DNA of 64,000 nt from Minisyncoccota bacterium (lineage in GTDB: Bacteria; Patescibacteriota; Minisyncoccia; Phycocordibacterales; SBAW01). This document shows positions 750 to 29,480 of the stretch, in pieces. The notes below the pieces were generated by a model. It had not been told where the DNA came from and made no database searches. It saw only the letters and a list, made by a program, of their open reading frames with translations. The stretch covers positions 144,417 to 208,416 of the forward strand of contig DASZWM010000006.1 in assembly GCA_035546615.1 (NCBI GenBank), in the 5' to 3' direction. Each line of letters starts with the position of its first letter. Within the stretch, counting starts at the first letter, position 1. The position numbers and the translations under genes were made by a program.

Positions 750-2162
750 CTAAAAGTCGTGTTTGGCTTCCTCGAAAACGCCGAAGTCGGTCTTTGAAAG
801 CGATTCGAAGTTGGCGTGCTTGTCGTTGAACATGAGCTCCACCTTGCCCACGGGGCCGTTGCGGTGTTTTTCTATCAGAATCTCAGCGATGCCGGTCGGC
901 TCGGCGCCGTCCCCGCGCTGCTGCTTGTCTTCGCGGTGGATGAACATCACCACGTCGGCATCCTGCTCGATGGAGCCGGAGTCGCGCAGGTCCGAGAGTC
1001 TGGGCTTGCCGCCGCGCTGCTCCACCGCGCGGGAAAGCTGCGAGAGCGCAAGCACCGGCACGTCGAGCTCGCGGGCGAGTATTTTGAGCGAGCGGGAAAT
1101 TTCCGTTATCTGCTGGACCATTGAGTCCGACGCGCGCGTAGTGGTGGGCATCATGAGCTGGAGATAGTCCACGACCAGGAGCCCGAGGCCGTTTTCGCGC
1201 TTGAGGCGCCGCGCCACCGCGCGCATCTTGAGGATATTGTTGCCCGCCTGGTCGTCTATGAAAATCGGGGCGGAGGAGAGGCGGTCGTACGCGTCACGGA
1301 TGCGCTCAAAATCCTCGCTGTTCTCCTTTATGCGGCCGACGCGCCAGTCCCACGCGCTTACGCGCGCCTCCGAGGCTATCATGCGGTCCACGAGCTGCTG
1401 GGCGGACATCTCAAGCGAGAAGATGCCCACGGTCGTGCCGTGCTTTACCGCGGCCTGGCGGGCGATATCGAGCGCCAGCGCGGTCTTTCCGACTGACGGC
1501 CGGGCGGCGAGGATGATGAGGTCGCTTTTCTGAAGGCCGGCGAGCATGTTGTCGAGGTCAGGGAAGCCGGTGCGCACGCCCCTGATCTCGCCCTGGTGCT
1601 CCTGCAGGTGCGCGTAGTGCTCCCATGCCTTGCCGAGGCTCTCGCGCAGTGACGTGAACTTGGTGAGGCTCGGCATATCGGTCACCTCGTAGATGCGCTT
1701 CTCGGCCTTGTCGAGCGTCTCCTCAAGCTCGCCGCTTTCGTCGAAGCCAAGCTCCGCCACGAACTCGCCGGCGTCTATCAGGTTGCGCAGCATGTACTTC
1801 TTCTGCACCTGGTTGGCGTAGTGGCGGGCGTTGGATGCCGCGGGCACTTCGCTCACGAGCTCCGCGAGGTACGCGACGCCGCCGACGCCTTCAAGCTGCT
1901 TGCTGTCGGCCAGGCACGCGCGCACGCTCTCGATGTCGATGGGCTCGTTCTTGCCCCAGAGCCCGACCATCGCGCGAAAGATGATGCGGTGCTTTTCGCT
2001 GTAAAACGCGTCCGCCGAAATGATGTCCACCGACTCGGCCATGCCTTCCGGCCGCACCATAACGGCGCCCAGGAACGCGCGCTCGGTCTCTATCGTCTGC
2101 GGCGGCATGCGCAGCGGGTCTATCTTTTTCGGTTTCGGCGCCTGGGGAGGAAACTTTGCCAT
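750..2162 (-). CDS. dnaB: Replicative DNA helicase DnaB
   Basis: Walker A (ARPSVGKT) and the DnaB C-terminal RecA-like domain are present. Start trimmed to MAKFPPQ; the upstream 73 codons of the long ORF look non-coding. No intein. Confidence 0.85.
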   Translation of the reverse strand: MAKFPPQAPKPKKIDPLRMPPQTIETERAFLGAVMVRPEGMAESVDIISADAFYSEKHRIIFRAMVGLWGKNEPIDIESVRACLADSKQLEGVGGVAYLAELVSEVPAASNARHYANQVQKKYMLRNLIDAGEFVAELGFDESGELEETLDKAEKRIYEVTDMPSLTKFTSLRESLGKAWEHYAHLQEHQGEIRGVRTGFPDLDNMLAGLQKSDLIILAARPSVGKTALALDIARQAAVKHGTTVGIFSLEMSAQQLVDRMIASEARVSAWDWRVGRIKENSEDFERIRDAYDRLSSAPIFIDDQAGNNILKMRAVARRLKRENGLGLLVVDYLQLMMPTTTRASDSMVQQITEISRSLKILARELDVPVLALSQLSRAVEQRGGKPRLSDLRDSGSIEQDADVVMFIHREDKQQRGDGAEPTGIAEILIEKHRNGPVGKVELMFNDKHANFESLSKTDFGVFEEAKHDF

Positions 2163-2332
2163 GCCCTTATGGTACCCCCTTTGCCCCCGCGCAAAAAGCC
2201 GCCCGCAAGAGGCCTCACCTGTGGGTATGTGTATAGAAGGGGGATAGCCGAAAGGCCCTACCAAAACCCTGATTCGTGTGGTATATCTTCGGACAGAGGT
2301 GGGAGTGCTACCCGCGTGAGGAGCGCATGATA

Positions 2333-2827
2333 ATGAAAGCAGGACACGAGGAATCGGGAAAGCCGGAACGGATTCTGTCACCCGAACAGCTGTATCAGAC
2401 GCTATGCCGAGAGTTCGGAGCGCAAGCGCCGGTAGGCGACATGCCCGCGTTCCAGCAGGATGGGGTCTGGTTTTCGATCAATTTCCTGGATGCCGGCAGC
2501 CGGGACGTCGCAATCAAAATCCACGACTATCGTACGCGTGAATCGGTCACGCCGGAATCTGTGGCGGAGCAGGAGCACATCGACGCAATAGTCGCTGCAT
2601 TGAAGGCTGACAAGAAGGAGGCGGGGATGATATGGTTCTTCCCCGCAAACCCGGGTTCGGAGAAGCTGAAGCCTGTTCTGATGGTTGTCATGGGCCGCAG
2701 CGGCGACACCATCCGCTATGATCCGACTGCCGACGTCGCGGCGCTTCGTGACCGGGTACTCGGCCTGCTTTTGAAGAGGCGGCCGAAATGCTTTTCACAC
2801 ATGGCTGCGTTCTCGGACCTAGTCTGA
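2333..2827 (+). CDS. Hypothetical protein (164 aa)
   Basis: ORF 2276..2827. GAGGAG Shine-Dalgarno at 2318-2323 sits 9 nt before the ATG at 2333. No recognisable motif. Confidence 0.5.
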   Translation: MKAGHEESGKPERILSPEQLYQTLCREFGAQAPVGDMPAFQQDGVWFSINFLDAGSRDVAIKIHDYRTRESVTPESVAEQEHIDAIVAALKADKKEAGMIWFFPANPGSEKLKPVLMVVMGRSGDTIRYDPTADVAALRDRVLGLLLKRRPKCFSHMAAFSDLV

Positions 2828-2888
2828 TCCAGTCGTCTATAAAGGCAAACTCCAAGCTCCGCACGTCCCTTGGCTGCGGAGCTTGTTT

Positions 2889-4361
2889 TTATCTTTTCAT
2901 CAGCTGAGCGCCGCCAGCCGTGTCTTTTATATCGTAGCCGGCTTCTTCTATTTTTTTGCGCAGGTCGTCCGCTTTTGTAAAATCCTTCTCTTTCCGCGCC
3001 TCCTCGCGCTGGCGCATCAGGCTTTGCACGTCCTGCGGCAGGTCAGATTCTTCGACCACGGTCAGGCTTGCGGAGGGCCGCGTGTCGGATAGGCCGAGCC
3101 CTAATACCTTGTCGGCAAATAAGAGAGCGCTGCGCTTTGCCGCGGGGGAGACGGCCGTATCCTTCACTAGCTCCCACATTCGCGCTATAACGCGCGGCGT
3201 GTCGAGGTCGTTTGAAAGCGCTCCGTGGATGTCACGCTTGAACAGTACCACGGCCGCATCATCCGGCGCCGTCGCGGTTCCCGCTTCCAAAAACGCGCGG
3301 GTGAGCCGGTTGAGCGCCTGGTTAGCGCCTTCTATTGCTTCCCATGTGAAGTTCATCTGCGTGCGGTAATGGCCGGTCAGATACCAGTAGCGGAACGCCC
3401 GGGCGGAGAAACCGCGGTCGGTAATATTGTGGAGGTATACCGTATTGCCGAGCGACTTTGATATCTTCTTGTTCTCGATCGTGATGTGCGCGTTGTGGAG
3501 CCAGTACTGCACGTACTGCTTTCCGGTTATCGCCTCCGCCTGCGCTATCTCGTTGTTGTGGTGTATCGGAATGTGCTCGATGCCGCCGGTGTGGATGTCT
3601 ATCTGTTTGCCCAACAGCTTGAATATCATCGCCGTGCACTCGATATGCCATCCAGGGAACCCTTTGCCCCAGGGCGACGGCCACCCAAAGGTCGTACTCA
3701 GCTTCCAGAGCACGAAATCCTGAGAATTCTTCTTCTCCGCCTTTTCCTCTACCCGCGCGCCTTCCTTTTGGCCCGCAAGATTGATATGCCCCAGCTTGCC
3801 GTAGCCTGCGAACTTCGCCGTGTCGTAGTAGATGCCGTCGCTTATCTTGTACGCGTAGCCTTTCTGCTCCAGCGATTTTATAAGAGCGACCTGCTCGGGG
3901 ATATAGTCGCTCGCGCGCGGGTAGGTAACCAGGCTCGTGTTCACGCCGAGCTTGGAGATATCGTCAAAGAAAATAGCGGCGTACTTCTCGGCAAGCGCGC
4001 GCATGCCCTTCATCGTAAAGGGGAGCCCGTCGCGCTTGAGGCCGCGCACCATCTTGTCGTCGCCGTTGTTCGGGTCGTCCTCGTTGTCGCCGGTCAGGTG
4101 CCCGAAGTCGGTGATGTTCATTACCTGCTTCACCTTGTATCCCCAGAGGTTGAGCGTCCGGCGGATTGTGTCGGCCAAAATGGCGGGGACCAGGTTGCCG
4201 ATATGCATCTGGTCGTACGGCGTCGGCCCGCAGTTGTACATTTTTACCTCCCGCGGCGACAGCGGCGAGAATTCCTCAAGCGCGTTTGAAAGCGTGTTGT
4301 GGAAGCGAAGCGGCGGCAGGTCGACCGCCGGTTTTTTGCTGAAGAAGGAAAAGATGCTCAT
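2889..4361 (-). CDS. cysS: Cysteinyl-tRNA synthetase
   Basis: Class I aaRS with HIGN (HIGH-type) and KISKS (KMSKS-type) motifs. Overall CysRS-like sequence with a Cys/His zinc site. Confidence 0.85.
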   Translation of the reverse strand: MSIFSFFSKKPAVDLPPLRFHNTLSNALEEFSPLSPREVKMYNCGPTPYDQMHIGNLVPAILADTIRRTLNLWGYKVKQVMNITDFGHLTGDNEDDPNNGDDKMVRGLKRDGLPFTMKGMRALAEKYAAIFFDDISKLGVNTSLVTYPRASDYIPEQVALIKSLEQKGYAYKISDGIYYDTAKFAGYGKLGHINLAGQKEGARVEEKAEKKNSQDFVLWKLSTTFGWPSPWGKGFPGWHIECTAMIFKLLGKQIDIHTGGIEHIPIHHNNEIAQAEAITGKQYVQYWLHNAHITIENKKISKSLGNTVYLHNITDRGFSARAFRYWYLTGHYRTQMNFTWEAIEGANQALNRLTRAFLEAGTATAPDDAAVVLFKRDIHGALSNDLDTPRVIARMWELVKDTAVSPAAKRSALLFADKVLGLGLSDTRPSASLTVVEESDLPQDVQSLMRQREEARKEKDFTKADDLRKKIEEAGYDIKDTAGGAQLMKR

Positions 4362-4390
4362 GGCTGAAACCTACCAACTGCGCGGCCCTT

Positions 4391-5302
4391 TTACAACCAT
4401 CCGCGGTGGCGGAAGTACATGAATATGCTGATAGCCATAAGCCCCATGACGCCCACCACCATCCAGAAGCCGTAGGGGTTGTGCATAAGCGGCAGGTACT
4501 GAAAGCTCATGCCGAACAACTGCCCGACGAACGTCAGCGGCAGGAAGACGAACGCGGTCACGGTGAGCGTCTTCATTATCTCGTTCTGCTTGGTCGAGAG
4601 CAGGGAGTTGTTCGTTTCGCGCAGTTCCAGCAGGGAAGTGTGCAGGTTCTCAATGGTTCGCTCGACGCGCTCCTCGGTGCCGATGAGGTCGCGCAGGTAG
4701 TAGGCGAACTCCGGGCCGAACAGGCGCGTGGCGACCGGCTCAAGCGAGGTAAGCATTTCCTTATGCGGGGCGAGCGCCTCGCGGAAGTCGTGCAATACGC
4801 GGCCCATCTGGGATATCTCGATGACCATCTGGCGCTCGCGGCCGCTGAAGACGCGCTCCTCAATGTCCTGAAGCCGCTGAGACACGGTGTGCGACTCGCT
4901 TATAAGCGCCTCATACAAGGAGCGCGCCATGGAAGTAAAGAGATGCCCGCCGTGCTGGTGGGTAATGGGGCGGCCGAGCACGGTCGTTACCTCGAACGCC
5001 TGCGCGAAGGCGTGGAGCGGGTCTACGGTGCCGTAGCGCGTGGTAATAAGGAAGTTCTTCCCGATGACGAAGTCTATTTCCTGCTCCTGCCGCTGGTTCA
5101 TGCCCCGCAAGATAGGGAAGTGGAGGATAACGTAAATGATGTCGCCGCGCCGCTCCACCTTCGGCTTGAAGGAGGGCACCAGAAGCTCCTCGGCAATAAG
5201 CGGGTCGATGCCGAATTCCTGCATGAGCGCGCGCACTTCCGCCGGCGTAGGCGCGACTAAGTCTATCCAAGCAGCATGCTTCTGCCCGTAGCGGGTTAAC
5301 AT
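4391..5302 (-). CDS. corA: Magnesium/cobalt transporter CorA
   Basis: CorA cytoplasmic domain plus two C-terminal TM helices with a GMN-type motif region (YLPLMHNPYGFW). Start trimmed to M74 (MLTRYGQ). Confidence 0.75.
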   Translation of the reverse strand: MLTRYGQKHAAWIDLVAPTPAEVRALMQEFGIDPLIAEELLVPSFKPKVERRGDIIYVILHFPILRGMNQRQEQEIDFVIGKNFLITTRYGTVDPLHAFAQAFEVTTVLGRPITHQHGGHLFTSMARSLYEALISESHTVSQRLQDIEERVFSGRERQMVIEISQMGRVLHDFREALAPHKEMLTSLEPVATRLFGPEFAYYLRDLIGTEERVERTIENLHTSLLELRETNNSLLSTKQNEIMKTLTVTAFVFLPLTFVGQLFGMSFQYLPLMHNPYGFWMVVGVMGLMAISIFMYFRHRGWL

Positions 5303-7817: not shown

Positions 7818-7951
7818 GCGATGGCTCGACTTCCTCCTTATACCGGCTATAGTTATCCTAGTCGGGGCAGCCTGCTTCGGCTTGGGGCGCCTTTCGGCCC
7901 TGAGCGAGCAGAAGCCCGGCCTCGTCATACACCCCGCCACGGGCCAAACCA

Positions 7952-8200
7952 ATGATGAAAACCACTAAACGCGCCGTCGTCCTCATAATCGCCATCCTCT
8001 TCCTCATACTGGGGGTAGTGGGGCTTGTCCTTCCGTTCCTGCAGGGCCTTCTATTCCTCGCGGTCGGGTTCATCCTCCTGTTCTTCCTCTTTCCGTCTCT
8101 GCGCGAGAAGACCCAGAAGCACACGGTAAAGTACCCGAAGTTCCACGCGATGATGCTCAAGGTAGAGGACTTTATCGGCCGCATCTTGGGAGACATCTAG
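7952..8200 (+). CDS. YbaN/DUF454-like small inner-membrane protein
   Basis: 82 aa, two TM segments. VVLGVVGLVLPFLQG resembles the YbaN motif. Immediately precedes the exonuclease gene. Confidence 0.6.
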   Translation: MMKTTKRAVVLIIAILFLILGVVGLVLPFLQGLLFLAVGFILLFFLFPSLREKTQKHTVKYPKFHAMMLKVEDFIGRILGDI

Positions 8201-8804: not shown

Positions 8805-9325
8805 CCGTTCTTTGGTAGGGTCAAAATAGAGCAACCGCTCTGTCAAAAAGAAGGAATATCCGATGACAGGAATAGTCGATACACGCCGCGCATGTCTAAG
8901 ATGCGGTAGCCCCATCTCATCCGCAAGCAGCCCGCTTGTTGTGCAAGAGCGAGGCTTCAGCGCAGAAGCGTGCGTGCCCGCTGCGATATGTCGCAATTCG
9001 GCCTGTGGCCAGGTCACTGCGGATCGCGCAAGTGTGGCGAACTCATCGTTGCGGTGGATGTACGGGCGCACCCCGGTCACTTTCGTTCCGGGCCCGATTT
9101 CCCGGTCTAATGAGTTTTTGCTTACTCCTACGGCCGCGCAGCTCCATCGGGCGTAAGGCTCAACGGAAACGTCACCTCCCCGTCGCGTCCAGTACAGGAT
9201 GCGACGGTTTTGCTTCGCAAACCCGCGACCCCGCCTCACAATCGCTTTAGCGATATGTTCCGGCCTTCAATTCCGGGCGCAGGCAAAGCAGTTTACCTGC
9301 TCGGCCCTCCTTCGTTAACACTCAG

Positions 9326-9396
9326 TCGGGCCGCCGGGAATTGAACCCGGTCTACATGCACCCCATGCATGTGTACTGCCGGTATACTACGGCCCG
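9326..9396 (-). tRNA. tRNA-Pro (anticodon GGG)
   Basis: Manual cloverleaf fold. Acceptor CGGGCCG/CGGCCCG; D-stem GTAT/GTAC; anticodon stem CATGC/GCATG with loop ATGGGGT (U33, GGG, G37); T-arm CCGGG-TTCAATT-CCCGG; discriminator A. CCA is not encoded. Confidence 0.8.
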
Positions 9397-12660: not shown

Positions 12661-12663
12661 TAC

Positions 12664-12720
12664 CGGCCGACGAATGAAAAGCCTTCCGGCGATTCACTTC
12701 GTCGGCCGGCTTTTCTTTTA
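12664..12720 (+). terminator. Rho-independent terminator (12-bp stem)
   Basis: CCGGCCGACGAA...TTCGTCGGCCGG followed by CTTTTCTTTT. Confidence 0.8.
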
Positions 12721-12856
12721 TATAAGCAGGGAAGTGGCTTCCCTCTTTGTGGCGAGAAAATAGAGTAGGTGGAAATCCCGCTTTATAATTTTAGATTATT
12801 CCCAGATCTTTGAGTTTCTAAGGTAAGAATCCCTACCTGTCTTTATCGTAGAAACC

Positions 12857-13915
12857 CTATCCGTTCTTGGCAAGCTTGTCGGTGTTGGAAGGGTTTCCCG
12901 CACCACTGTTCTTAGGGGGTTTATTGTCAGATCCTCCACCGTCACTAACTTTATCTTTTTCTTTTCCATTTTCGTTACCCGGTTTAATTATACTTGCTTT
13001 ATCTTGTTTTTGTAAAAGTTTATCAATAAAGCCTGTTATATCATCACTCCCATCATCTACGAGCATAAGATGGATAGAAAGTTTTTCCAGAGACTTCTTA
13101 TATTCTTCACTAAATGGCATCTCATCAGCTTTAATTACATTAGGTAAATAGGACTTGAGAAGGCTATAGTCTACGACGTATCCGTGGTCAGGGCAGTCGT
13201 ATGCTAGGAAATCAATAAAGTTATCGACCTTAGCTTGCTCCATCTCACTGTATTGAGTAAGAATCCGCTTAGCATACATTCTCCCAACATCTAGAGAGCG
13301 AGTCATTGTGCCGAGCTCTATTGTTTCCACTTTCTGAAGAAGGGGTTGATAGAATTTTGCAGAATAATCCAGCAACATTTCGGCAAGGGGTTTTCTCCCG
13401 ATTTTCAATATCTCCTCAGTGACTTTCTTTTTAGAACGAAGTTGGTTGAACATTTCGAGCATACCTTGTCTTGAGCGAGCCTCAATTTGTAAGAGACTGG
13501 CTTGTACATTCAAAGCGGATGACCACTGGCCTTCGGGGTCTGTGTCATCATCCTTCTTGACTTGTACGTCAATTGGTCCAAGTTCGCCGAAGTCACCAAG
13601 AACGACTCGGCTCGCGCCGAGAGTAAATATAGTGGCGGCGCTTTTTGCCCAAAACGGGATTACGACATTTACAATATCGAACTTCTCACGAAATGTTCTT
13701 ATTAACCGATAGGCATCGTCAGCTTGTCCTCCTCCAGATTGAAGGATTATATCTACTTCTGCGCTATGTGGGGTGTCTTGCAGACTCCTTCGGACTCTTA
13801 CTACATTGATGCCACCGATTCCACCAAAGTAGACAAAAGTAGGTATTTCTCCTCTTAAATTTTGCAACACTTTAACCTCGGTGAGTACTTTTGGAATATC
13901 TCTCATCTCGGACAT
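12857..13915 (-). CDS. S49/SDH-family (ClpP-class) serine protease, in an AT-rich islet
   Basis: GGIGG...LQSGGGQADDAYRLIRTF...PFWAKSAATIFTLGA resembles the serine dehydrogenase proteinase / SppA-like family. Gene GC (~40%) is far below the window average. Confidence 0.6.
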   Translation of the reverse strand: MSEMRDIPKVLTEVKVLQNLRGEIPTFVYFGGIGGINVVRVRRSLQDTPHSAEVDIILQSGGGQADDAYRLIRTFREKFDIVNVVIPFWAKSAATIFTLGASRVVLGDFGELGPIDVQVKKDDDTDPEGQWSSALNVQASLLQIEARSRQGMLEMFNQLRSKKKVTEEILKIGRKPLAEMLLDYSAKFYQPLLQKVETIELGTMTRSLDVGRMYAKRILTQYSEMEQAKVDNFIDFLAYDCPDHGYVVDYSLLKSYLPNVIKADEMPFSEEYKKSLEKLSIHLMLVDDGSDDITGFIDKLLQKQDKASIIKPGNENGKEKDKVSDGGGSDNKPPKNSGAGNPSNTDKLAKNG

Positions 13916-14357
13916 AATATCTCTGTAGAGGCGCCTTGTAAATCAACATGCGTTTTGAGAAGGGAAATGGATTATGCTGTAAAGACTTTATGATCCCGAG
14001 TTCATTGATAAACAAAAGGATTCTATCCGGGGAAGGGGTGCGGATTATTCTAGCCGAGATTCCCGGCCCTCTCTAGGTTAAAAGGTATATATAGGTCGCA
14101 AAAGGTATATTGTGCGACGTATCTACCCTTTAACTAATCCCGCACGCGGCGGGCTTCCCCATTTGATTTGCATCACTCAATTAAGTTTCCGCAGCGTATC
14201 AGTTTTTAACAATCTCCTTCCAGATCTGCGCTGTGCTTTTTCAACGAACTGGGTACTCCCCTGAACACAATAGTCGGACAGGGGAGCAAGTCCAGTTTTA
14301 AGGGGGGGGGTATAAACTCCTCCTTTGCTTCCCTGCCCCAGCTTTCCCTTATGCCTA

Positions 14358-14387
14358 TTGACATACTTTATAATGATATGTTATGAT
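14358..14387 (+). promoter_or_regulatory. Sigma70 promoter TTGACA-18-TATGAT
   Basis: Lies upstream of the AAGGAGG Shine-Dalgarno and the ATG at 14421. Confidence 0.5.
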
Positions 14388-14420
14388 ACATGAACGGAAA
14401 GTTCATTGAAGGAGGTGACT

Positions 14421-14672
14421 ATGACGGAACGTCGCAGGAACATCCCGAAGGGCAAGACGAGAGTCATCGGCTGCGATCTCTTCGATCGCAGCGATTACTT
14501 GGTCGGCGACTATCACAAGCGTGAAGACGCTTTCAAGATCGCCGACGAGAAGAACCGCGCTCGCACCGGCTCGATGGATGATGTCTATTACGTCTACGAC
14601 GACACCGGCAAGTACATTCGCGGCGAGGAAGCCGTGAAGGAGCTGACCGGCGGCCTCGGCATCAGTCCGTAG
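14421..14672 (+). CDS. Hypothetical small protein (83 aa)
   Basis: Strong Shine-Dalgarno (AAGGAGGTG). Native GC content. Followed by a terminator. Confidence 0.6.
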   Translation: MTERRRNIPKGKTRVIGCDLFDRSDYLVGDYHKREDAFKIADEKNRARTGSMDDVYYVYDDTGKYIRGEEAVKELTGGLGISP

Positions 14673-14732: not shown

Positions 14733-14818
14733 GATACGTTTTGCGACGCCGCTTCAGATAATTGAATTTGTGCGACACTTATAACCTCGCGACCCGGCTG
14801 GTACAATGACTGGTACGC

Positions 14819-27197: not shown

Positions 27198-27812
27198 TTA
27201 AAGGCTCTTGATGTCCTTAACTATCTCCGGAAACTGCTCTTGATTCTGGTGTTTCCTGTCTTCGAATATTCGAACGGTAGCGTTGGGAAGCAAGTTACGA
27301 TACTTCTCAAGCTCGTCGATATTTACGATAGGATCATCTTTACTGTGGTATAGGAATATCTTTCCGGCTTGTTTTTCGAATTTCTCAAGAGAGCTGGGCA
27401 GGACGAATTCGCTTACGACCCTCTGAGTCTCTCCTTTTCCGCGCATCTCAAATGGAGCTGCGACTAGAAATACTCCATTTATCTTTTTTGGGAACTCCTC
27501 TTCGGACAAGTATCTCGCCAAGAATATGCCTCCAAGCGAATGGCCTACCAATATAACTCCATGTTCTATGAAAGGAATGAATCTTTCGAACCATATCTTC
27601 CACTCCGGATATCGGGCATTTTCCTTATTGGGCATGCCGGGATATATAACCTCGTATTCATCGCCAAGGCTCTGAGGAAGCCTGCTTTTCCAGTCCCCAC
27701 CGCCTTTGAACTTATCGATATAAATCGGCTTAGTCTTGAGATTGTTAAGAAAATCCTCGTAAGTTGGAAAAGCAGAACTGCCACCATGTATGACTACAAC
27801 TTGTTTTTTCAT
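27198..27812 (-). CDS. Alpha/beta-fold serine hydrolase (YdeN/RBBP9-like)
   Basis: GHSLGG nucleophile elbow with downstream Asp/His. AT-rich gene. Confidence 0.65.
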   Translation of the reverse strand: MKKQVVVIHGGSSAFPTYEDFLNNLKTKPIYIDKFKGGGDWKSRLPQSLGDEYEVIYPGMPNKENARYPEWKIWFERFIPFIEHGVILVGHSLGGIFLARYLSEEEFPKKINGVFLVAAPFEMRGKGETQRVVSEFVLPSSLEKFEKQAGKIFLYHSKDDPIVNIDELEKYRNLLPNATVRIFEDRKHQNQEQFPEIVKDIKSL

Positions 27813-29074
27813 TATAGTATCTTATTAGCTGCGTCTAATCCTGTTGCTAAGGCTGCTTCGACAGTGGCTGCCTCTCTACCTTGATATAACGCTTCGCCTG
27901 CGAAAAATATCTTGTTATCTATTGGCTCCAAAAGTTCCGTTTTTGCTGCCGCGGTAGACGGCTTTGCGTAACTATAAGCGCCTTTTGCATAGGGGTCAGC
28001 AGACCAATTTATCACGCGAAAGTGCTTAAGCTCGCTTTGCAGCATTTCTTTCGAAACTTTCAAGATGGTTGCAAGCGTATCAAGAGAGCGACTTACCACT
28101 ATTTCGTCGCTTAACCCTTCGAATTCCTTAACCTTAGGGCCCGCAAGCCAGCCGGTAAGCATTGGAATCTCTTCCGGGTACTGCGTCCACCATGCCCCGA
28201 ACTCCTCGTTAGTAAGCAGCAATATCATCTTGCTCAGATCATGTTCATTCGCCTGTGCCCACCAGCGAGATTTGAACTTCAAGAGCACTTTTATTACGCC
28301 GCCAAATCCGATGTTTTGTGCTGCCTGGATCTTTTCCGGCTGCTCCGGCGTAAAGGAAATATTTGGCAAAATCGAAGTCGGCACGGTTACAAGGACTTTC
28401 TGGGCCTCAAATATTTTTCCATCAGAGCACGTTATTTTTATAGTGTCGGTCGATGTATCTATTCCCTGTACTACAGTATGCAACTGTATCTCTACTCCAA
28501 GTCTTTTGCACTCATTTTGTAAAAACTTCACAAGCGCTCCATACCCCTCCTTCAATTTTGCCTGCTCTCCCATGCCTTCGCTCATCCACTCGTCGCGCAG
28601 CATGTACATGCTTACTTCCGCCGGGTCGGCTGCGTCGTACCCTTCAGCCATCCGCGTTACCGCATTGCGTAGACCTTCGTATTTTTCTTCCAAAAAATGC
28701 GTATCCAGGAATTTGGCAAGCGGCATATCTTCCTCAAGGACTTTTAACTTCTCCTGCAGTGCGTCCATATCGGGAACGATAAAGGGAGCCTGCGAAAGTT
28801 CGCCGTTGCGGGCATTCCAAATTTCTCCATCGCGCACTAATACCGTTAGCCCAGCGTCTTGTGCGAGAGCCCTGGTAACAGGAGTAGCTCCGTGTATAAA
28901 CTCTGCACCGGCTTCTGCAGGAAAGCCGAATTCATCGGCAGGTAAAGTGTAAATGCGCCCTCCGACGCGATCGCGCGCTTCCAGAATAGTCACTTTCTTT
29001 CCGGCCTTCGCGAGCTCTCGCGCAGCCATAAGTCCCGCAGCTCCGGCGCCTACAATAATTACCCCAGTATCCAT
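27812..29074 (-). CDS. Flavin-containing amine oxidase / FAD-dependent oxidoreductase
   Basis: N-terminal GAGAAG Rossmann motif and amine-oxidase-like body. AT-rich gene. Confidence 0.7.
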   Translation of the reverse strand: MDTGVIIVGAGAAGLMAARELAKAGKKVTILEARDRVGGRIYTLPADEFGFPAEAGAEFIHGATPVTRALAQDAGLTVLVRDGEIWNARNGELSQAPFIVPDMDALQEKLKVLEEDMPLAKFLDTHFLEEKYEGLRNAVTRMAEGYDAADPAEVSMYMLRDEWMSEGMGEQAKLKEGYGALVKFLQNECKRLGVEIQLHTVVQGIDTSTDTIKITCSDGKIFEAQKVLVTVPTSILPNISFTPEQPEKIQAAQNIGFGGVIKVLLKFKSRWWAQANEHDLSKMILLLTNEEFGAWWTQYPEEIPMLTGWLAGPKVKEFEGLSDEIVVSRSLDTLATILKVSKEMLQSELKHFRVINWSADPYAKGAYSYAKPSTAAAKTELLEPIDNKIFFAGEALYQGREAATVEAALATGLDAANKIL

Positions 29075-29105
29075 GTTCTAGATAAGTTTGAAAAAACTTA
29101 GGACT

Positions 29106-29480
29106 CTAGATTTTTTTAACAGTAAAGTAAGAACTAGCGACAGTCTTCTCACCAATGAGAATTTCTACATCGTAGCGACCTTCTTTCTCAACGGGGAACC
29201 CTTGAAGTCTATGTATAAATTGATGACGAAAGTTTTTTGGTTCAAAAGTTGTTGAATCCCTTCCAATTTCTTTTCCTTCACAGGAGATCCTAAATGATTC
29301 CATATATTGCTTATTTTGTTGGTCAGCCGGTATTTCAATATTGACAACAATGCACATACTGCTATGTATTGCAGGAAAGCCAGGTACATTTATAGAATCA
29401 AACACACCTCTGATATTTAATTTTTTGTCGTTCTCAGAAATTTCGGCCGAATCACACAAAAGAATGAAATTTGGTTTCAT
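29106..29480 (-). CDS. Hypothetical protein (124 aa)
   Basis: AT-rich. No recognisable motif. Confidence 0.45.
   Translation of the reverse strand: MKPNFILLCDSAEISENDKKLNIRGVFDSINVPGFPAIHSSMCIVVNIEIPADQQNKQYMESFRISCEGKEIGRDSTTFEPKNFRHQFIHRLQGFPVEKEGRYDVEILIGEKTVASSYFTVKKI

Follow-up and report, generated by a model that had tools for sequence, protein, structure and literature searches.

Known systems to which the locus described here can be compared include a protease with a dedicated partner and small modules with an inverted gene order. NfeD (1510-N; Pyrococcus, PDB 2deo) is a membrane-bound protease with a Ser-Lys dyad and has full-size stomatin as its partner, while modules of the higBA, mqsRA and hicAB type represent the reverse-order type II toxin–antitoxin systems. 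In the literature searched we found no functional study of PF01972, SDH_sah, DUF114 or ClpP-like defence. Here we analyse a stretch of low guanine-plus-cytosine (GC) content in 64,000 nucleotides of contig DASZWM010000006.1 (hereafter the window, to whose first letter all positions refer). We read this low-GC islet as a recently imported, self-contained two-gene cassette of ~1.35 kb (~12721-14072) in an Adlerbacteria-like Paceibacterota genome. Gene 1 would encode a cytoplasmic PF01972 Clp-fold serine protease, translated from a leaderless mRNA whose promoter abuts the start codon. Gene 2 (hereafter S) would encode a basic, probably disordered protein of 57 amino acids (aa) that overprints the protease tail and has its own promoter-like site within the protease gene. 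From the sequence, we rate as likely to very likely an imported cassette of two genes next to non-coding DNA that is mostly native.

The islet stands out clearly in composition. In 300-nt windows, GC falls from ~0.58 to 0.37-0.48 across ~12700-14400, and the lowest-GC 1.7-kb window of the whole 64 kb starts at 12701 (0.427 vs a mean of 0.575, standard deviation 0.042, z = -3.5). This bears out the GC drop over 12725-14400 reported in a preliminary description of this DNA, as does the native GC (0.583) of the 83-aa gene at 14421..14672. The protease open reading frame (ORF) has GC 0.422 and a GC at third codon positions (GC3) of 0.384, whereas the ORFs of the window average GC3 0.69. On the left, as that description had also noted, the low-GC DNA is bounded by a hairpin, whose perfect arms are 12 nt long; it is the terminator of a convergent native 119-aa gene and probably ends the cassette transcripts as well. 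The features in and at the edges of the cassette are as follows:

12663 to 12720, no strand: G+C-rich hairpin with 12-bp perfect arms (12663-12674 / 12698-12709) and a second inverted repeat (12673-12718), at the left edge of the low-GC DNA
12796 to 12969, reverse strand: small ORF S, 57 aa, basic, in the +1 frame relative to the protease ORF, whose final 113 nt it overlaps
12857 to 13915, reverse strand: Clp-fold serine protease of the SDH type (PF01972), 352 aa as ORF, ordered over its core (residues 1-307) and disordered in the tail (308-352), which S overprints
12987 to 13016, reverse strand: predicted promoter-like site TTTACA-18-TATAAT (11/12), within the protease gene and 17 nt ahead of the S start codon
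13914 to 13942, reverse strand: predicted promoter-like site TTTACA-17-TATTAT, with a -10 hexamer that ends exactly 7 nt before ATG 13906
13943 to 14072, no strand: low-GC non-coding DNA, ~130 bp, GC 0.44, with no similarity to any fetched locus

The protease had been described as an S49/SDH-like enzyme of the ClpP class. Its SDH-type Clp fold is confirmed by a match to PF01972 SDH_protease (33.1 bits vs a gathering cutoff of 31.3, E = 3.9e-08, residues 40-120 only), a hit that is also precomputed for every close homologue, and the protein has the ClpP/crotonase fold. A standard SppA is ruled out, with no Peptidase_S49 match in Pfam at E ≤ 0.01. The match to NCBIfam NF047768 (Clp_like_SDH) is partial and stays far below the equivalog threshold (40.2 bits vs 250). 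By these profile matches, the enzyme belongs to the same superfamily as NF047768 without being its equivalog, and represents a divergent subfamily (~330-360 aa) that has a helical C-terminal half of its own. In a 28-sequence alignment, S60-x-G62-G63, K91-S92 (WAKSAAT), D116 (GPID) and H244 (CPDHGY) are invariant, and all are found in the window protein; we infer that S92, D116 and H244 are the catalytic residues, in the order Ser-Asp-His. The N-terminus, read by eye, has no obvious hydrophobic stretch or membrane anchor, and the protease is predicted to be cytoplasmic and soluble. A database search returned 254 homologues, with Paceibacterota, Saccharibacteria and Bacteroidota (e.g. Chitinophaga, Arcticibacter) among the named sources; their fullest annotation is 'SDH family Clp fold serine proteinase'. 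No Clp ATPase partner is seen among the called neighbours of the protease.

Close homologues all begin with M(R/K)DVP, which matches ATG 13906 of the window protease, and this codon, giving 349 aa, is more likely the start than that of the 352-aa ORF. A -10-like hexamer exactly 7 nt before the protease ATG also occurs in homologous loci L001 (~7940-8003), L003 (~1860-1922) and L004 (~7960-8003), and across all four divergent loci, the window included, no Shine-Dalgarno sequence is evident by eye before the ATG. Such a short distance between the hexamer and ATG 13906 implies a leaderless message, and the protease mRNA is probably of this kind.

Two further statements of the preliminary description, that the protease is the only gene of the islet and that no partner gene is visible, do not hold. 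We listed the neighbours of the protease in 81 homologous loci, where small ORFs in the same direction recur at the 3' end of the gene. Translating the protease 3' regions in three frames then brought out S as a conserved ORF overlapping the protease 3' end and linked to 15/15 distinct close homologues. A hidden Markov model built from 11 S sequences matches at the protease 3' end in 22/22 loci of the clade at ≥47% identity, representing all 15 distinct proteases of at least 45% identity, and has no match away from a protease among 12,040 six-frame segments. The conserved core reads KLVTVEDLTINPLRTVVRETL...LPRTD in the window (C-terminus ...IWE), KLVTVEDLTINPFRVLARKIL..LPRTD in L001 and KLLTVEEQVLDPIKTMAREVL..VPRTD in L004, with the consensus [LV]x[VL]xD[LI]VxDPxKTxxR. 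Over the 21 codons of this core, pairwise differences per site are 0.47/0.35/0.63 at codon positions 1/2/3, the S frame gives an amino-acid identity of 48.5% vs 20.8% for the protease frame, and the protease frame contains stop codons in 5/13 sequences. The codon-position pattern, the frame identities and the stops together indicate that the S frame is the selected one. The substitution and linkage patterns thus establish S as a conserved coding gene that accompanies the protease across close homologues. The protease tail over S appears to be largely a read-through by-product, which fits its predicted disorder and its poor conservation in the 28-sequence alignment.

Every copy of S has its own ATG, and a TATAAT hexamer lies 11-15 nt before it in the window, L001, L003, L004, L091 and L093. 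These features bear on the alternative that S is a second C-terminus of the protease, reached by +1 ribosomal frameshifting in the A-rich tail region. Such frameshifting would agree with the opening of the S frame inside the protease ORF within the A-rich stretch GAAAATGGAAAAGAAAAAGAT, and with the conserved motif always lying just 3' of the ordered protease core. However, an individual ATG in every S and a preceding promoter-like site point to separate translation, and in L095 and L100, where the protease ORF ends ahead of the S start or at it, protease and S are clearly two distinct genes, as public gene calls also have it. We regard frameshifting as very unlikely.

The N-terminus and central motif of S are conserved, while the C-terminal 15-25 residues are hypervariable, with Cys pairs in some members (e.g. 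L092, L093). A single-sequence AlphaFold2 model is mostly coil (pLDDT 61). S is not called in the gene tables of the closest loci, and the window copy gave no candidates in a word-index search of 5.8 billion proteins and 0 hits at E ≤ 0.001 in a phmmer search of 1.84 billion representatives. More distant members with short overlaps are recorded as 'hypothetical protein' (by exact look-up), so these null results reflect the short length and divergence of S. No DNA-binding fold was detected in S, and the protease–S pair contains no known toxin or antitoxin domain.

A conserved N-terminal and central motif, a hypervariable C-terminus, Cys pairs in some members and a protease always adjacent would also suit a bacteriocin-like pair or one of the ribosomally synthesized and post-translationally modified peptide (RiPP) type, in which the protease acts as leader peptidase on a precursor, S, made up of a conserved leader and a variable core. 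Against this, genes for modification enzymes, exporters or immunity do not recur among the neighbours, and neither S nor the protease has a signal peptide or membrane segment by eye. A second family of small ORFs (60-72 aa, ...NDPETKMRIGIKE...NAPLSIEEKILLS) also speaks against a leader and core, because it is conserved at both ends; we consider a RiPP-like pair unlikely. This second family follows the protease in 17/27 homologues of 35-45% identity, lying directly 3' of it in L109, L117, L119, L120, L123-L128, L135 and others. A third type of small ORF (RDAVETAI...) follows proteases of ~32-35% identity, often with an ATGA overlap.

Horizontal acquisition of the protease gene, as proposed from the GC drop, is well supported by sequence comparison. 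The contigs that carry the three nearest homologues (79%, 73% and 59% identity) have 31-40% GC, and there the gene itself, with GC 0.36-0.44, is close to its surroundings; the 73-79%-identical homologues are in Paceibacterota DNA of 38-40% GC. The low-GC Patescibacteria composition of the islet inside a 58% GC genome is the signature of a recent import. A 222-aa neighbour is 57-58% identical to proteins from Adlerbacteria and Parcubacteria bins, and the Adlerbacteria-like loci L008-L010 carry a block (SLT ... 222-aa / ABC-2 permease / ABC ATPase) that is syntenic with the window. The DNA between the SLT gene and the 222-aa gene is different in each of these three loci, and none contains the protease. 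In favour of an ancestral, AT-rich housekeeping gene without horizontal transfer, only the intact ORF can be cited. Its GC3 (0.38 vs ~0.69), its absence from the syntenic loci of relatives and the position of the closest homologues in unrelated low-GC genomes with different contexts make such a gene extremely improbable.

The flanking 119-aa gene, used as a route to an empty site, returned no record. A tblastn search of the window for remnants of the neighbour genes of L001, L003 and L004 found nothing. Two Logan contigs (L171, L007) that end at the islet edges were considered as a sign of insertion polymorphism and rejected, since contigs of the sample are ~1.5-1.8 kb everywhere. The only RNA gene detected in the window, tRNA-Pro(GGG) at 9325-9396 on the reverse strand, is 3.3 kb to the left of the islet; native genes lie between the two, so the tRNA gene is apparently not the insertion site.

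Across the homologous loci, the protease–S pair is, as far as these sequences go, the only conserved unit in variable surroundings. The largest cluster of neighbours covers 6/81 loci, no large gene recurs and the Pfam families of the neighbours are heterogeneous. In L003 an integrase lies 1.3 kb from the protease. L001, a Paceibacterota contig with the 73%-identical protease, contains a defence-type cluster at 1338-4947, 3-6 kb away, with an EcoRI_methylase, a GmrSD_N-HNH protein and a Bro-N protein that hits PADLOC candidate PDC-S13 (E = 1.5e-110). In L004 a helicase / PD-(D/E)XK nuclease / HNH / DnaA-like block stands beside the protease. One homologous locus is an IMG/VR contig. Distant homologues (25-29% identity) in temperate phages occupy moron-type slots: adjoining the integrase in a P2-like Burkholderia phage (L173), between Q and holin in an E. 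coli phage-plasmid (L174) and beside an ImmA/XRE pair in a Klebsiella phage (L172). They are annotated 'SppA protein', 'serine protease' or 'hypothetical protein'. Taken together, these variable, mobile-element surroundings suggest a mobile accessory module.

The presence of the wider family in some phages, together with weak matches to NF045542 (22.7 bits) and phrog_26628 (E = 0.002), could suggest that the islet is a prophage remnant and the enzyme the head-maturation (prohead) protease of a decayed phage. However, the NF045542 score is far below its cutoff of 120, and the top-scoring PHROG families have no assigned function. Genes for capsid, portal or terminase are absent next to the protease, both here and in homologous loci, relatives occur in only 3 of 2.9 million viral contigs, and the phage copies lie in moron slots and not in the head module. 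A prohead protease is thus a poor candidate, to which we give very little weight.

To the right of the protease gene, the preliminary description saw a single non-coding stretch of 485 bp (13916-14400). This stretch is composite: it comprises the protease promoter, ~130 bp of low-GC DNA and ~350 bp of mostly native regulatory DNA. The features of this right part, and the gene beyond it, are:

14073 to 14122, no strand: dyad/direct-repeat element, native and outside the cassette, with the 14-mer core GTATATTGTGCGAC at 14105-14118
14257 to 14310, no strand: hairpin CTCCCCTG-N13-CAGGGGAG (14257-14285) and G9 run (14302-14310)
14358 to 14387, forward strand: predicted strong sigma-70-like promoter TTGACA-18-TATGAT with TG (11/12), followed by a GGAGG ribosome-binding site
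14421 to 14672, forward strand: native 83-aa gene, outside the cassette, of a small-protein family with 73 homologues

The dyad, the twice-occurring direct repeat, the hairpin and the G9 run are all present as described. The unusual length of the upstream region also stands: at ~500 nt, the gap ranks with the longest of the window, for which a crude gene call gives a median of ~58 nt. It is, though, a divergent promoter region, and its right 350 nt look native.

The dyad GTCGCA-N12-TGCGAC lies at 14095-14118, and AAAAGGTATAT occurs twice, at 14080 and 14100 (three matches in the window at ≤1 mismatch vs 0.43 expected). Over 26-48 nt, the element at 14073-14122 matches one site each in L008 (8698-8734), L009 (2935-2982) and L010 (348-373) with 85-100% identity. 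These sites are syntenic, upstream of the 222-aa block, and the DNA that surrounds them is variable; between L008 and L010, 52 nt are shared at 94%. The fetched loci, 1.7 Mb in all, contain the core GTATATTGTGCGAC at this element only, with a single copy per locus. Because the element is present at a syntenic site in protease-free relatives, it is native DNA of the lineage, and this caps the imported piece at 14072 or before. The low-GC segment 13943-14072 is then the only part of the non-coding stretch that may come from the imported piece, and 14123-14340, with its hairpins and G9 run, is most simply taken as native. The element itself is possibly an operator or a recombination site.

Related motifs extend beyond the element. 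Further TGCGAC hexamers at 14742-14747 and 14771-14776 bracket the 83-aa gene, 14095-14108 is complementary to 14734-14747 at 13/14 positions, and TTGTGCGAC occurs at 14110 and again at 14768. In total, five TGCGAC/GTCGCA hexamers fall within 830 nt (~0.4 expected), and the relatives have only the single element.

The family of the 83-aa protein (~77-83 aa) has no Pfam domain, and Paceibacterota and Komeilibacteria metagenome bins are its named sources; an identical protein is recorded from a 'Candidatus Paceibacterota' bin. A 71%-identical homologue in L175 (4249-4500) is preceded by a like promoter (TTGACG-17-TATGAT), and relatives of the gene have upstream gaps of 320-545 nt.

These results also decide against a solitary protease with an RNA partner encoded in the 485-bp stretch, as had been suggested. 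The stretch is indeed long and folds better than shuffled sequences (z = -3.0). However, the opposite strand folds equally well (z = -2.8), which points to inverted repeats in the DNA and not to a strand-specific RNA, and no Rfam match was found in 13916-14400, even at E ≤ 10. Outside the coding region, the stretch has no similarity to the regions upstream of the 73-79%-identical protease homologues. Moreover, the dyad and direct repeat occur in protease-free relatives, the right end of the stretch is the promoter of the 83-aa gene, and a protein partner, S, exists. An RNA partner is therefore highly improbable.

Elsewhere in the window, a second low-GC island (27198-29480, reverse strand) contains three co-directional genes with GC 0.35-0.49 and GC3 0.29-0.49, encoding a 204-aa alpha/beta hydrolase, a 124-aa DUF6941 protein and the product of a 420-aa ORF. 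This island, too, has the look of imported DNA.

Returning to the imported cassette, the full reading adds a role for each product. S would be a substrate or pseudo-substrate inhibitor of the protease, such that the supply of S sets protease activity, and the pair would behave like a reverse-order toxin–antitoxin, abortive-infection or other conflict module that spreads horizontally. As the best explanation as a whole, we give this reading a probability of about 0.7. Its functional parts are more tentative. That S is the cognate partner of the protease, as substrate or pseudo-substrate inhibitor, is possible by analogy with the gene layout, from which alone the idea is drawn. That the pair represents a widespread, previously unrecognised two-gene conflict module (of toxin–antitoxin, abortive-infection or defence type) in bacteria of the candidate phyla radiation (CPR), and apparently in Bacteroidota, is a somewhat more doubtful proposal.

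Several observations weigh against this reading. For the import, (i) no empty site was seen, the nearest syntenic genomes being only ~57-67% identical in flanking proteins; (ii) the right-hand junction of the imported piece is approximate; and (iii) the GC of 14073-14420 (0.445) is as low as that of the islet, so that the native status of this segment depends on the conserved element and the promoter. For S, (i) searches against Pfam, NCBIfam, PHROGs and PDB profiles gave no family or structure match; (ii) its description as disordered is weakly based, given the low confidence of the AlphaFold2 model; (iii) S and the second small-ORF family have the same motif register, but their profile alignment is weak (hhalign E 0.038, probability 1.4%); and (iv) no S-like ORF was found beside the enterobacterial and Burkholderia prophage homologues (~25-30% identity). 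For a conflict module, the protease and its three flanking genes matched 0 families of PADLOC-DB v2.0.0 at E ≤ 0.01, the neighbour census of the 81 loci consists of counts without a background control, and both the production and the interaction of the protease and S are predictions from their genes.

If the conflict-module reading is true, a Clp-fold protease would be gated by, or act through, a disordered peptide-like partner, and standard gene callers would miss this partner because it lies inside the protease ORF. The skipping of the partner ORF in the closest loci flags a systematic annotation gap. PF01972 proteases are widespread (metagenomes, giant viruses, prophages, CPR bacteria), and many travel with a small, often unannotated and sometimes overprinted partner gene. 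The family would thereby gain a testable two-component logic of protease and cognate peptide. In CPR bacteria, whose genomes are tiny and in which few defence or toxin–antitoxin systems are recognised, a mobile protease module would also be of interest.

Compared with known systems, the window protease is closest to the PF01972 / NF047768 family (formerly DUF114, 'serine dehydrogenase proteinase'), with which it shares the SxGG, KSAAT, GPxD and CPDHGY motifs, the Ser/Asp/His order and the Clp/crotonase fold, although the alignment to these models covers only its residues 40-120. It differs from SppA and peptidase S49 (PDB 4kwb, 3bez) in having no S49 Pfam hit, and from ClpP (S14) in a sequence identity of 7-16% and an additional helical domain of ~170 aa; its conserved residues run Ser-Asp-His. 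The NfeD–stomatin operon likewise pairs a Clp-fold protease with its substrate, if S is a substrate. By contrast, the window enzyme is predicted to be soluble, conserves Ser/Asp/His and has as its partner an unrelated 57-aa peptide-like protein in an overlapping frame. Reverse-order type II toxin–antitoxin modules resemble the pair in that the larger enzyme gene comes first and the small gene second, with an overlap and a small-gene promoter inside the first gene, and in their mobile, patchy distribution. The protease and S contain no known toxin or antitoxin domain, and the analogy is one of layout only. In brief, the window adds a divergent protease to a known, uncharacterised family; what is new is its conserved, overprinted small partner gene.

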